A stretch of 64,000 nt of DNA from the NCBI GenBank assembly GCA_028693705.1, contig JAQUUX010000004.1:779-64778 (forward strand), written 5' to 3'. Below, one piece after another: positions 3,527-53,007 of this stretch. A program made the translations under genes and the position numbers. Source of the DNA: Lachnospiraceae bacterium. GTDB taxonomy: Bacteria; Bacillota; Clostridia; Lachnospirales; Lachnospiraceae. Each line of letters begins with the position of its first letter. Positions within the stretch are counted from its first letter, which is position 1. The notes beneath the pieces were generated by a model. That model was not told where the DNA came from, did no database searches, and was given only the letters and a program-made list of their open reading frames with translations.

Positions 3527-4012
3527 ATGAAACGTATATATTCCGTTTTGGTAGAAAACAGATCCGGTGTTTTGTGCAAGGTAGCCGGTCTTTTCTCCAG
3601 AAGATGTTTTAATATCGACAGTCTGGCCGTTGGTGAAACAGACGATCATGCGGTATCGTGCATGACTATTGTCAGTTCTGGTGATGAGCGTACCATTGAA
3701 CAGATTGAAAAGCAGTTAAATAAAAAACTGGATGTTATTAAAGTAAAGACTTTTGATGAAAATTCCAGCGTCAGCAGGGAATTAATGCTGATAAAAGTAA
3801 AATATAATAAATCTACCAGAAAAGAGATCATGGAAATCTGTGACATTATGAAGGCACAGATAGTGGATATGTCTAAGCGTCAGATGATCATCCAGATCTG
3901 CGATACGCCGGAAAAAATCCAGTTGTTAATACATATGTTACAGTCTATCAGCATTGTGGAAGTAGCACGTACCGGTACCCTGGCATTACCTAAATGTGCC
4001 GATACAGATTGA
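3527..4012 (+). CDS. ilvN: Acetolactate synthase small (regulatory) subunit, copy 1
   Basis: 161 aa. N-terminal ACT domain (SVLVENRSGVLCKVAGLFSRRCFNIDSL) plus the C-terminal small-subunit domain. GGAG RBS upstream. Sits directly after ilvB. Confidence 0.85.
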   Translation: MKRIYSVLVENRSGVLCKVAGLFSRRCFNIDSLAVGETDDHAVSCMTIVSSGDERTIEQIEKQLNKKLDVIKVKTFDENSSVSRELMLIKVKYNKSTRKEIMEICDIMKAQIVDMSKRQMIIQICDTPEKIQLLIHMLQSISIVEVARTGTLALPKCADTD

Positions 4013-4204: not shown

Positions 4205-4714
4205 ATGAGAAAAAAAGTATTTCAGCTTCTGGTTGATAATACTTCTGGTGTATTAAGCCGTATATCCGGTTTGTTTGCCAGACGTGGTTATAATATTGAG
4301 AGCATCACGGCAGGCCTTACATCAGATGAAAATGTTACCCGTATTACCATAGTTGCATCGGGTGACGATGAGATATTGGATCAGATTGAAAAGCAGGTTG
4401 CGAAGCTGGTGGATGTTCGTGAAATACAGGAACTAAAGCCGGATGACAGTGTATACAGAGAACTTTGTCTGATCAAAGTAAAAGCATCAGCAGAACAGAG
4501 ACAGGGTGTTATTTCCATAGCAGATATTTTCCGTGCGAAGATTATCGATGTATCGCCGGAAAGCCTGATTGTGGAACTGACTGGAAATCAGTCAAAAATA
4601 GACGCGTTTATCAGCCTGTTATCATCTTTTGAAATATTAGAACTGGCGAGAACAGGTATTGCAGGTTTATCAAGAGGCCTTGGATATGAATCGTTTATGG
4701 AAGGTAGACTTTAA
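4205..4714 (+). CDS. ilvN: Acetolactate synthase small (regulatory) subunit, copy 2 (paralog)
   Basis: 169 aa. ACT domain (QLLVDNTSGVLSRISGLFARRGYNIESI) plus the C-terminal domain. Clearly homologous to, but diverged from, the ORF at 3527-4012. Confidence 0.85.
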   Translation: MRKKVFQLLVDNTSGVLSRISGLFARRGYNIESITAGLTSDENVTRITIVASGDDEILDQIEKQVAKLVDVREIQELKPDDSVYRELCLIKVKASAEQRQGVISIADIFRAKIIDVSPESLIVELTGNQSKIDAFISLLSSFEILELARTGIAGLSRGLGYESFMEGRL

Positions 4715-5794: not shown

Positions 5795-5796
<2 letters not shown>

Positions 5797-6424
5797 ACTG
5801 CAGTTTAGTAACTCAAAAAAATAATGTTTATAATGAGACGGCAATGGTGTGGGTGTGTATCCTTCCATTGCCGTTTACACGTATAAGAGCCGCTACATCA
5901 TTCCACGAAGATACTTGCCCTTTAACGCTAACGGCCCCAATCGCCATCCTGGCTCTAAGGGGCCTTTCAAGCCATTTATGGCTTTGGCATCCATGCCCGG
6001 AATAGCTGGGTTACGACTGGAATGATTAGCGGCTCTAATACGTGCGCTCAGGCAATAGAAGAATACACACCCGCACCACTGCCTGTTCATTACATTCGCT
6101 ATTCTTTTCAAGTTGCCAATCTACAGTTAGTCCAGTCTGTAGCTGAGGCCAGGCTATTGCAAATTTTCAGTTGCCGTAACTGGGGTCTTTGCGCCCCAGG
6201 GCACCGCAAACGGTAGCTTGAAGGAAATAAACATTGCCGTAAAACGAGGTTCAGCCGTGTATCGTATGCGAACAAGCACTGTAAACACGTCTGTACTTAG
6301 TTCGCGTCTTGTGCGAACTTATGTACAGCTACGTGTTTACCGTAGTGAGAACGGGCTTGTGAGCATATGATACACGGCTGAACCGTCACTTTACATCAAT
6401 CTTTATTCCTTTAAACTGCAGTTT
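5795..6424 (+). repeat. Copy A of a non-coding, palindrome-rich repeat element of about 630 bp, unclassified. It could be a structured RNA gene or a non-autonomous mobile element.
   Basis: Bounded by the perfect palindrome AAACTGCAGTTT at 5795-5806 and 6413-6424. Full-length homolog at 51177-51787 and a partial inverted homolog at 9302-9570. Giant imperfect hairpins at 5846-6077 and about 6209-6424. No credible ORF. Confidence 0.9.
6248..6384 (+). repeat. 137-nt imperfect hairpin, the near-invariant core of the repeat element (copy A)
   Basis: GGTTCAGCCGTGTATCGTATGC (6248-6269) pairs with GCATATGATACACGGCTGAACC (6363-6384). Inner stem GTAAACACGT / ACGTGTTTAC, with the apex around TCTTG near 6308. 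The same asymmetric bulges occur in all three copies. Confidence 0.85.
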
Positions 6425-7341
6425 TATTGCTGATATTGATTCATAAAGGTAAGAAATTCTTCCACAGCAGGATTCTGGCTGATCTTGGATAAGGCAGCAA
6501 ATCCGATCTTACGGGAAGGAATGGCTTCATCCAGGTTATATTCCAGAAGTTCACCGGAGGCCAGTTCTTTTTCTACAAATTCTCTGATGACACAGGCAAT
6601 TCCCAGATCTGTTTTAGCAAAATCAATCAAAAGATCCATGGTGGAAAGTTCAATGATATTTTCGGGGTGGAGAAGCGGTAGCCTTAAATGCTGCTGAACG
6701 AACTGACGGGACATATTTTGCTCATCCAATAACAAAAAGGTTGCATTTTCTTCAATACTGCCGGCAGTGGAGCCCATTCGTTCCATCAGATTATGATAGT
6801 ATGCAGGAGAAGTTACAAACATATCATGAATTTCCCGAAGAGGTGTAAATGCGATGCCGGCTGCATTTCCGGCAGCTTCTTCCGGTTCACCGATTAAACC
6901 AATGTCGGCTTTTCCATTTTTCAGTTTTTCAATTGTACCATAGCTGTTTTGACAGGAAATTGTGATTTTAATGTGAGGATGATTTTTGATAAATTCTTTT
7001 AACATGGGAAGTAATACAAATTTGCAAAGTGTAGAACTGACGCCAATGGTGATTTCGCCCATTCCAAGCTCATTCCTGCGATTTAAAAGATCCTCGCCAT
7101 ATTGCAGGGATCTTAGCGCTTCGTTTACCTGCTGAAATAGTATTTCACCTTCGGCAGTCAGCTTCACGCCTCTGGAATTGCGGTAAAATAGTTTTGTATC
7201 CAGTGCACTTTCCAATTTGCTGATAGATTTTGAAACTGCCGGCTGGCTGATGAAAAGTTCCTTTGCTGCTGCAGATATATTTTTTGTAGCGGCAACTTTA
7301 TAAAACACTTGATATAAGTTCAGGTTATCAAAAGCTTTCAT
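6424..7341 (-). CDS. LysR-family transcriptional regulator
   Basis: 305 aa. N-terminal wHTH (ISAAAKELFISQPAVSKSISKLE) plus a LysR substrate-binding domain. Divergent from leuCD and convergent with ilvC. Confidence 0.85.
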   Translation of the reverse strand: MKAFDNLNLYQVFYKVAATKNISAAAKELFISQPAVSKSISKLESALDTKLFYRNSRGVKLTAEGEILFQQVNEALRSLQYGEDLLNRRNELGMGEITIGVSSTLCKFVLLPMLKEFIKNHPHIKITISCQNSYGTIEKLKNGKADIGLIGEPEEAAGNAAGIAFTPLREIHDMFVTSPAYYHNLMERMGSTAGSIEENATFLLLDEQNMSRQFVQQHLRLPLLHPENIIELSTMDLLIDFAKTDLGIACVIREFVEKELASGELLEYNLDEAIPSRKIGFAALSKISQNPAVEEFLTFMNQYQQ

Positions 7342-8814: not shown

Positions 8815-9303
8815 ATGAAAGCAGCAAAAGGTAGTGTTTTTAAATATGGAGATAATGTGGATACAGATGTTATTATTCCTGCGAGATATCTGAACTCTTC
8901 AGATCCTGCAGAATTAGCAGAGCACTGTATGGAAGATATTGATAAAGATTTTATTCATTCAGTAAAAAAAGGAGACTTAATCGTAGCAGAGAAAAACTTC
9001 GGCTGCGGTTCCTCTAGAGAGCATGCGCCGATTGCTATTAAAGCAGCCGGTGTGAGCTGTGTTATTGCAGAAACTTTTGCCAGAATTTTTTATCGTAACT
9101 CTATTAATATAGGTCTTCCGATCATTGAATGTCCGGAAGCTGCAAAAGCAATTCAGAACGGTGATGAAGTAGAAGTGGATTTTGATTCCGGAATGATCAC
9201 TGATGTAACAACCGGTAAACAGTTTAAAGGACAGGCATTTCCGCCTTTTATGCAGAAAATTATTGATGCAGAGGGATTGATTAACTACATTAATATGAAA
9301 TAA
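8815..9303 (+). CDS. leuD: 3-isopropylmalate dehydratase small subunit
   Basis: 162 aa. Aconitase swivel domain ([27 protein letters not shown]). Directly follows leuC. Confidence 0.9.
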
Positions 9304-9570
9304 ACTGCAGGTTAAAGAAATAAGGATTGACGTAAAGTGACGGTTCAGCCGTGTATCATATGCTCACAAGCCCGTTTTCACTACGGTAAACACGTAGCTG
9401 TACATAAGTTCGCACAAGACGCGAACTAAGTACAGACGTGTTTACAGTGCTTGTTCGCATACGATACACGGCTGAACCTCGTTTTACGGCAATATTTATT
9501 TTCTTTAAGCTACAGTTTGTGGTGCCCTGGGGCGCAAAGACCTCAATTACGGCAGGTGAAAAATTGCAAC
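9302..9570 (-). repeat. Copy C of the repeat element: the 3' palindromic module plus about 70 nt, inverted relative to copies A and B
   Basis: This is the reverse complement of about 6150-6424. The core (9343-9479) differs from copy A at 1 position. It starts as AAACTGCAGGTT, overlapping the leuD TAA (9301-9303). Homology ends near 9569. Confidence 0.9.
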
Positions 9571-9654
9571 AGTTTGCAGAACTTGAAAATACTTTCCCAA
9601 ATATGTTACCATACCTTTATTGTTCAGAAAGTGGAGAAAAAACAATTGAAACAT

Positions 9655-10038
9655 ATGTTCGATCGTGCTAAAATTAAAAAAACAGATATCATTCTCATAA
9701 TTTTAATTCTCATCATAGCTGCCTGTTCCTTTTTATGGTACAGATATCAAGGAACACCAGGTGCTGCAGTAGAGGTTTATTTGGATGGTGCTTTAACTGC
9801 CACATATCCTTTGGAACAAAGTGCAGAGTATGAATTGACGGGCGCACATGATGGACATAATCATCTGGTCATTGCAGATGGTAAAGCGTCCATTACAGAT
9901 GCAGATTGTCCGGATAAGCTATGTGTAAAACAAAGGGCTATTTCAAAAAACGGAGAAACTATATGTTGCCTGCCGCATAAGCTGGTGATAAAAATTTCCG
10001 GTGGTATGGAAAATGAATTAGATGCTGTAACCAATTAA
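9655..10038 (+). CDS. NusG domain II-containing protein (DUF1312 family)
   Basis: N-terminal TM segment (IILIILILIIAACSF), then the pattern VYLDG...ITDADCPDKLCVKQRAISKNGETICCLPHKLVIKI. The ORF-track start at 9451 lies inside repeat copy C, so I prefer the ATG at 9655. The TTG at 9646 is also possible. Confidence 0.7.
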   Translation: MFDRAKIKKTDIILIILILIIAACSFLWYRYQGTPGAAVEVYLDGALTATYPLEQSAEYELTGAHDGHNHLVIADGKASITDADCPDKLCVKQRAISKNGETICCLPHKLVIKISGGMENELDAVTN

Positions 10039-51176: not shown

Positions 51177-51787
51177 AAACTGCAGTTTAGAAACTTGCAA
51201 ATAATAATTATAAAGAGACGGCAATGGTGCGGGTGTGTATCCTTCCATTGCCGTTTACACGTATAAGACCTTCTACATCATTCCATAAAGGTATTCGGTT
51301 GCTTCCGCTAACGGAATCCAATCGCCATCCTGGCTCGGGATTCCTTTCCGGGCATCCATGCCCGGAATAGCTGTTTTGCAGCTGTAATGATTAGAAGGTC
51401 TAATACGTGTGCTCAGGCGATGGAAGGATACACACCCGTACCACTGCCTGTTCGTTACATTTGTTATTCTTTTAAAGTTGCCAATCTGCAGTTGCCTCGG
51501 TCTGTAGCCAAGGCCAGACTATTGCAACTATTCATTTGCCGTAACTGGGGTCTATGCTTCATCGGCACCACAAACTGCAGCTTAAAGAAAATGAATATTG
51601 CGTAAAACGAGGTTCAGCCGTGTATCGTATGCGAACAAGCACTGTAAACACGTCTGTACTTAGTTCGCGTCTTGTGCGAACTTATGTACAGCTACGTGTT
51701 TACCGTAGTGAGAACGGGCTTGAGAGCATATGATACACGGCTGAACCGTCACTTTACATCAATCTTTATTTCTTTAAACTGCTGAAC
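51177..51787 (+). repeat. Copy B of the palindrome-rich repeat element (full length)
   Basis: Starts with AAACTGCAGTTT (51177-51188) and ends with a degenerate AAACTGCTGAAC (51776-51787). Collinear with copy A. The 3' 177 nt differ from A at 2 positions. The 5' part is much more diverged, with indels. Confidence 0.9.
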
Positions 51788-52897: not shown

Positions 52898-53007
52898 TTG
52901 TAATAAAGCTAACAATACCGAAGCATGTATTGCTTAAACCGGCATGGTTATAATAAAAATGCCTGTTTCGTTATTGTTAGCTTGCAACATTCAGAATGGA
53001 GAATCAT

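Follow-up and report, generated by a model that had tools for sequence, protein, structure and literature searches.

The repeat that stands directly downstream of leuD in the stretch analysed here (64,000 nucleotides of a Lachnospiraceae bacterium, hereafter the window) is probably a truncated copy, in inverted orientation, of a composite intergenic repeat that does not code for protein and measures about 610-630 bp, a reading to which we would attribute a probability of roughly 55%. Two longer copies, A (5795-6424) and B (51177-51782), represent the full repeat (about 620 bp), which is organised as M1-linker-H1 (Table 1); the copy that follows leuD is called C (9302 to about 9590). Both M1 (305-322 nt, with its own inverted ends, AACTGCAGTTTAGAAACTTG... 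and ...AAAGTTGCCAATCTGCAGTT) and H1 (214 nt, bounded by AAACTGYAGCTTAAAG and CTTTAAACTGCAGTTT) are hairpins, very long in the case of M1, which are mutually inverted within the full repeat and separated by a linker of about 90 nt. The element as a whole is closed by terminal inverted repeats (AAACTGCAGTTTAG ... TTTAAACTGCAGTTT in copy A), in addition to the inverted ends that each hairpin unit has for itself.

CTGCAG-like sites are present at all four module boundaries (i.e. the two ends of the element and the two internal junctions), with a fifth one within the linker, and the perfect 12-bp palindrome AAACTGCAGTTT is seen in its exact form at the element ends only. The hexamer (a PstI site) occurs 30 times in the whole window, against 12.3 +/- 3.5 in shuffled sequences, and seven of these 30 sites are in the repeats. 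A motif, CASTGCYTGTTCG, is common to M1, H1 and a hairpin from another contig (H2, see below); it occurs once per long hairpin and essentially nowhere else, with six matches in the window for 0.22 expected. Because this motif is oppositely oriented in M1 (plus strand) and H1 (minus strand), we regard the element as a doublet in which two hairpin units in inverted orientation surround a linker. In H1, a mini stem-loop bulges from the arm opposite the motif (the internal-loop region being formed by CGAACAAGCACUG opposite the mini-hairpin CCGUAGUGAGAACGG).

Table 1. Positions in the window of the three repeat copies and of their parts.
Feature	Positions	Strand	Remarks
Copy A, M1	5795..6116	+	long hairpin; motif CACTGCCTGTTCA at 6077-6089
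Copy A, TwoAYGGAY RNA (RF01731), tip of M1	5872..6050	-	70.4 bits, gathering score 43
Copy A, linker (mod2)	6117..6207	+	
Copy A, H1	6208..6424	+	terminus overlaps stop codon of LysR-type gene (6424-6426, minus strand)
Copy C, H1	9302..9518	-	opposite orientation to A and B; identity of 95.8% with H1 of A and 96.2% with H1 of B
Motif CAGTGCTTGTTCG, internal loop and stem of H1 in copy C	9445..9457	+	six matches in the window, 0.22 expected
Copy C, linker (mod2), 3' two-thirds (about 55 nt)	9519..9572	-	homology to A, B and L078 stops at 9572
Copy C, possible remnant of near edge of M1 (TwoAYGGAY hairpin unit)	9573..9592	-	AACTTGAAAA at 9579-9588
Copy B, M1	51177..51481	+	motif at 51442-51454
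Copy B, TwoAYGGAY RNA, tip of M1	51252..51415	-	98.6 bits, gathering score 43
Copy B, linker (mod2)	51482..51571	+	
Copy B, H1	51572..51782	+	right terminus cut inside CTGCAG (AAACTGC/TGAAC)

The element occurs in several copies, neither codes for protein nor is autonomous, and is composed of structured hairpin units; it has the size, the absence of coding capacity and the terminal inverted repeats (at the ends of copy A as at the ends of each unit) by which MITEs are described, with 610-630 bp for a usual limit of about 800 bp and three copies in 64 kb. A coding reading of the hairpin was considered and rejected: the ORFs that can be drawn over the repeat differ from copy to copy and have no protein homologues, since a six-frame concatenate of copy A, together with the 93-aa ORF of the contig L009 (see below), gave no match among 5.8 billion proteins.

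All three copies are located beside core genes. Copy A occupies the whole spacer between ilvC and a LysR-type gene, two convergent genes whose stop codons both overlap its termini, and copy B lies between the end of an operon and the promoter of rplU, its right end being 13 nt before a promoter-like TTGACA-17-TATTAT. More generally, all ORFs of at least 120 aa in the window correspond to core genes according to their domains (ilv/leu, ruvAB, subunits of a gyrase-type topoisomerase, the his operon, rplU-rpmA-obg, a branched-chain amino-acid ABC transporter and lexA), with no reverse transcriptase, transposase or integrase among them, and the 64-kb window contains no gene for a RAYT (Y1 HUH) protein.

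As for copy C itself, leuD (8815-9303, Aconitase_C domain) ends with a TAA (9301-9303) that overlaps the first bases of the repeat, i.e. the terminus AAACTGCAGG. A preliminary description of this DNA, made from the letters alone, had already delimited the hairpin by two edge sequences, which we locate at 9302-9320 (AAACTGCAGGTTAAAGAAA) and 9500-9518 (TTTCTTTAAGCTACAGTTT), and had placed the end of the homology near 9569; we find that it stops at 9572-9575, within CAGTTTGCAG (9570-9579). The same description was right about the opposite orientation of copy C relative to A and B, the repeat finder giving an inverted match of 271 nt (94% identity) between 9302-9572 and 6154-6424 of copy A, in addition to a match of 182 nt (97%) between 9307-9488 and 51601-51782 of copy B, and also about the internal junction of copy B, announced at about 51572 and reading AAACTGCAGCTT at 51572. 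The next real gene after copy C codes for a NusG_II-domain protein (the domain starts at residue 14) and begins with the ATG at 9655, so the ORF 9438-9671 and the 5' part of the ORF 9451-10038 are read-through of the repeat, as had been proposed, and should be treated as artefacts in annotation. No tRNA is present as an integration target.

The region of copy C folds into a stem of about 100 bp, either as DNA (-77.2 kcal/mol, z = -11.4) or as RNA (-123.3 kcal/mol, z = -11.3), and in both cases none of 200 shuffled sequences folded as well. Compared with Rfam, the copy C hairpin (9250-9650) yielded no family with an E-value below 1, and a permissive threshold brought only chance matches of the microRNA type. 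H1 is outside all Rfam families, and M1 falls within one of them, TwoAYGGAY.

The preliminary description left the choice between a MITE-like unit of about 215 bp that moves independently and a deletion derivative. We think that the second hypothesis is the better fit, since copy C ends inside the linker or at the edge of M1 and not at the boundary of H1. Indeed, copy C runs about 55 nt past this boundary (9518) into the linker, so that the hairpin and the short adjacent piece (estimated previously at about 50 nt) are there, but the statement that copy C contains nothing except these has to be amended: the decamer AACTTGAAAA, 7 bases beyond 9572, matches the first conserved block of M1 after the linker in copy A and in the copy of the contig L078 (see below). 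An exact match of 10 nt at this collinear place also arises in 21 of 3000 shuffled sequences and in 27 of 3000 random 40-mers of the window (p about 0.008), and a gapped local alignment beyond 9572 is not significant, its score being within the range of shuffles. A remnant of the M1 edge in copy C is therefore a possibility, suggested by this single 10-mer. In comparison with L078, one deletion of 34 nt between the similar stretches TAGTTTAG and TAGATTGG would suffice to join both blocks (as read by eye). Beyond 9592, copy C shows no further similarity and no second CTGCAG terminus, and no target duplication is detectable at its edges.

Other partial copies also break away from the junctions: a remnant on L078 is cut in the M1 arm, a linker fragment breaks at position 925 of L009, and the right end of copy B lies inside CTGCAG. 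These scattered break points argue for decay, as a self-moving unit would have precise ends. The alternative, i.e. that H1 (or the linker with H1) is a MITE-like unit mobile on its own which was inserted alone after leuD, seems to us unlikely. It has in its favour the inverted ends of H1, which do resemble those of the full element, as the preliminary description had noticed, and the fact that H1 is the best conserved module across two genomes (93-97%, against 78-89% for the linker). However, H1 is joined to the linker in all five copies seen (A, B, C, L009 and L078), none of which ends at the inner boundary of H1, and copy C breaks off midway through the linker, with neither a terminus nor a detectable duplication. 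The occurrence on L009 of linker and H1 with no adjoining M1 could also be invoked, but this H1 belongs to a complete three-part arrangement in which H2 is the partner unit. Finally, a TA dinucleotide is found directly outside AACTGCAG at four of the seven termini and one base away at two others, as would suit an element inserting at TA; a longer terminal palindrome, TAAACTGCAGTTTA, explains this equally well, and next to the inner junctions there is CA/TG or some other sequence instead of TA.

The three modules do not have the same degree of conservation. H1 is 93-97% identical in all pairs, the linker 78-89%, and M1 of A is 89% identical to M1 of B (80% if gaps are counted) and closer to M1 of L078 (96.6%), a grouping that is not recovered with H1. 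These unequal histories imply exchange between copies, gene conversion, or a much stronger constraint on H1; the high conservation of H1, above that of the linker and M1, would also fit a recent independent spread, or gene conversion, of this module. One can imagine in this respect that the modules are cassettes swapped by site-specific or homologous recombination at the palindromic CTGCAG junctions, copy C and the replacement of M1 by H2 on L009 being products of such events. This is improbable in our opinion, and we give it little weight. In its favour are the CTGCAG-like sites at all five positions, with the perfect 12-bp palindrome AAACTGCAGTTT exact only at the ends of the element, the location of H2 on the M1 side of the linker, with a left bound of the terminus type (AACTGCAGTTTAG), and the discordance between M1 and H1 in the comparison of A, B and L078; a putative toxin-antitoxin pair of L009, bracketed by inverted linker pieces with CTGCAG sites, points in the same direction. 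On the other hand, the outer break of copy C is not a clean CTGCAG (TTGCAG at 9574-9579, with one mismatch), no recombinase gene was found near any copy examined, and H1 has a constant orientation with respect to the linker in all copies, with no sign of inversion.

The copies outside the window were obtained by scanning genome contigs with the 16-mer GGTTCAGCCGTGTATC. Nearly all the matches listed were due to chance, and the true ones among those listed are on L009 and L078, both of which come from the Lachnospiraceae MAG STD2_226. L078 has a full copy, cut by the end of the contig, with a TwoAYGGAY score of 68 bits (gathering score 43). The same contig carries at 5848-5916 a 70-nt remnant of the left end, located directly after the TGA of a cupin-domain gene. 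L009 has a composite in the order inverted linker fragment, H2, 35 nt, linker, H1, in which H2 takes the orientation of M1 and has M1-type ends. Two inverted linker-like fragments, each starting from a CTGCAG site (L009 46-85 and 925-985), bracket a pair of genes (ORFs 174-542 and 542-901) whose translations look by eye like a putative antitoxin and a RelE/ParE-like toxin; this pair might be a cassette captured between pieces of the element, or the arrangement might be due to chance decay. No mobility gene was detected near the L009 and L078 copies among the ten ORFs scanned with Pfam (three ORFs of 100-121 aa being outside this set) and the translations of L009 1-3500 read by eye.

The element is rare: beyond the window, true matches are known in MAG STD2_226 alone, among the matches listed and in the collections searched. 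JGI metagenomes gave 0 matches both with a 22-mer of H1 and with a generic motif pair for hairpins of the H1/H2 type, IMG/VR scans gave 0 true matches, and blastn retrieved nothing for copy A among phages and plasmids or for M1 among E. coli genomes. An empty site was sought through exact matches to leuD, L21 and L27, with a negative result, and the closest leuD homologues (88-91% identity) are followed by other genes and by ordinary terminators, with no element. In a related metagenome contig (L090, around 980-1190), the last 100 nt or so of leuD are duplicated in tandem, and this duplication of the leuD end accounts for the length of two of the homologues (P0002 and P0006, 209 aa).

H1 and H2 are 66% identical, in an alignment that is almost gap-free, and of 82 comparable base pairs 49 are unchanged, 21 have changed on both sides and remain paired, five have changed on one side and seven are broken; the motif and the bulged mini stem-loop are both retained in H2. 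In the whole alignment there are 23 covarying pairs, compared with 5.9 +/- 2.0 in shuffles (none of 500 reaching this number) and 2-3 in slid controls, it being understood that 21 of the 23 come from the single comparison of H1 with H2. The pairing of the hairpin has been preserved through divergence, together with a conserved asymmetric loop. The arm complementarity of a DNA palindrome can, of course, persist for reasons that have nothing to do with selection for RNA folding. The energies of the two strands, calculated as RNA, differ by at most 9 kcal/mol, and G-U pairs number seven against four A-C pairs, so that neither strand stands out as the functional one. The modularity suggested in the preliminary description is supported by the CTGCAG-like junctions, the inverted ends proper to the hairpin and the unequal conservation of the modules, and it is real over evolutionary time, as H2 takes the place of M1 in L009.

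If copy C is indeed a truncated copy, as we favour, it would have kept, besides H1, one proper terminus (next to the stop codon of leuD) and two-thirds of the linker, and would have lost M1 and the far terminus through deletion or rearrangement. The copies may have spread in trans by means of an enzyme encoded elsewhere, which would recognise the shared motif and the loop, and possibly insert the element into TA. If the TA of a TAA stop codon were the target, the stop would be regenerated upon insertion, and this would fit three gene ends. Located right after stop codons, the hairpin would be transcribed as a 3'-end RNA hairpin of the upstream transcript and could act as a bidirectional terminator or as a stabiliser. 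The stem of H1 measures about 100 bp and has an AU-rich base; an A-rich tract borders the stem on one flank and a U-rich tract on the opposite flank. A scan for the terminator consensus did not call the H1 hairpin, and downstream of ilvC, the LysR-type gene and leuD it detected no other site resembling a terminator. Standard terminators follow leuD in related species; here a giant hairpin takes that place. Judging from its position alone, the hairpin is probably a bidirectional 3'-end structure for the neighbouring transcripts.

Among known repeat families, the closest in their way of working seem to be the mosaics of the BIME/REPIN type and the fold-back MITEs (Correia, ERIC, RUP and BOX). 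BIMEs and REP/REPIN sequences consist of palindromic units in alternating orientation with linker motifs between them, and the singlets are regarded as remnants of mobile doublets. As in the present case, they are intergenic, non-coding, multi-copy sequences found at the 3' ends of genes, the imperfection of their palindromes creates an asymmetry and hence an orientation, two inverted units flank a linker, variant types of unit can occupy equivalent slots, and solo as well as ragged partial copies exist. The inverted doublet is seen here as M1-linker-H1 in A, B and L078 and as H2-linker-H1 in L009. However, our units have 214-322 nt, compared with 20-40 nt for REP sequences, no REP head of the GTAG type is apparent by eye in those unit sequences that we read, the host belongs to the Lachnospiraceae, and one of the units is tipped by a recognised RNA motif.

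Bacterial fold-back MITEs include Correia/NEMIS in Neisseria, ERIC/IRU in enterobacteria, and RUP and BOX in Streptococcus pneumoniae. Like the element described here, they are devoid of ORFs and carry terminal inverted repeats, and their size ranges from 100 to a few hundred bp; they are located next to genes, in either orientation, and when transcribed their hairpins can terminate mRNAs or alter their stability. BOX is modular (boxA, boxB and boxC), and Correia and ERIC duplicate a TA upon insertion. The resemblance is one of description, and the stem of about 100 bp with its conserved, bulged mini-hairpin is longer and more elaborate in our case. One may also think of the attC sites of integrons and other folded single-strand sites, in which the fold and the extra-helical bases are kept while the sequence varies and the asymmetry fixes the orientation; the likeness would concern this working principle only, since there is here no R/L box consensus, no integrase and no cassette array, and our units are much longer.

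The TwoAYGGAY RNA motif (RF01731) was described in 2010 with a mention of its very large closing stems, and in the alignment published at that time it is present in many copies per genome, accompanied by other repeated flanking pieces (Weinberg et al. 2010, PMC2864571). The M1 units of A and B match the model over its full length, whereas H1, which does not have the two AYGGAY loops, gives no match and shares with this RNA only the basal motif and the general build of the hairpin. The TwoAYGGAY matches of A and B are enclosed by a further closing stem of 53-58 nt, which makes them the tip of a hairpin of about 320 nt. Human-gut copies of the alignment in PMC2864571 have, by eye, a similar basal motif (GUAAC.ACAGACA), with no H1-like hairpin in about 200 nt of flank on each side. 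In Psychromonas ingrahamii (NC_008709, supplement of PMC2864571), many TwoAYGGAY copies are flanked by short repeated modules such as GUAACACGCCGUCAGGGCGGAAGACCAACAA, and it seems that in this gamma-proteobacterium too TwoAYGGAY is part of mosaic repeats. The orphan TwoAYGGAY motif is, in the window, the tip of one unit in a mosaic repeat.

Two ideas from the literature on TwoAYGGAY lead to other readings of the element, and nothing in the window supports either of them. According to the first, M1 would be a small RNA that sequesters CsrA, H1 would simply be its terminator or stabiliser and copy C a leftover terminator. Both AYGGAY loops strongly match the CsrA-binding motif (PMC4333381), and there are U-rich tracts after the H1 stem on either strand, but H1 is located in A and B upstream, and not downstream, of TwoAYGGAY on the TwoAYGGAY strand, a scan of copy B found no promoter-like site on that (minus) strand, and the shared motif and the mosaic structure would be left unexplained; we consider this reading extremely doubtful. 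According to the second, which we find very improbable, the whole element would be a gene for a non-coding RNA associated with a reverse transcriptase, or a non-autonomous retroelement, in which TwoAYGGAY recruits the enzyme, H1 is templated or structural, and copy C is dead. The idea comes from a preprint of September 2026 (10.64898/2026.09.22.753630) through its word counts only, which give 52 occurrences for "TwoAYGGAY", 14 for "reverse transcriptase" and 24 for "cDNA", but 0 for "retrotranspos" and "mobile genetic element"; the abstract, by the same kind of count, combines TwoAYGGAY with one enzyme term, probably "reverse transcriptase". The terminal 12-nt palindromes could pair like the repeats that flank retron RNAs. 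However, there is no reverse transcriptase gene among the ORFs of at least 120 aa in the 64-kb window or among those examined beside the L009 and L078 copies, the three copies of the window lie in spacers of core genes in both orientations, and poly-A tails or other marks of retroposition are absent.

A more general proposal, which we mention as a speculation and consider quite unlikely, would make H1, H2 and the TwoAYGGAY-tipped hairpin one class of units of 200-330 nt, recognised by a single trans-acting enzyme, possibly the reverse transcriptase with which the preprint of 2026 seems to associate TwoAYGGAY. The composites would then form, in gut Clostridia, a non-autonomous mobile system comparable to REPINs or to retroelements, with TwoAYGGAY as a mobility module rather than a regulatory RNA. 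Each unit would, in such a class, display CGAACARGCASUG in the 5' arm of its more stable strand. If H1 is only a decayed repeat, which seems most likely for copy C, the matter is an ordinary one, and its significance would increase only with evidence that a specific enzyme linked to TwoAYGGAY acts on the hairpin units as its substrates. In any case, 21 compensatory changes have preserved the stem of about 100 bp in H1 and H2. These two hairpins have a 13-nt motif in common with the TwoAYGGAY-tipped unit, and this motif, together with the bulged mini-hairpin, provides a handle for finding the protein that binds or moves such elements.

Two further observations concern the rest of the window. 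Two adjacent genes (3527-4012 and 4205-4714) both code for acetolactate synthase small subunits (ALS_ss_C and ACT domains). The rpmA-obg spacer contains at 52906-52983 an inverted repeat with arms of 26 nt (85% complementary) separated by a gap of 26 nt, which is probably a terminator or an attenuator unrelated to the element.
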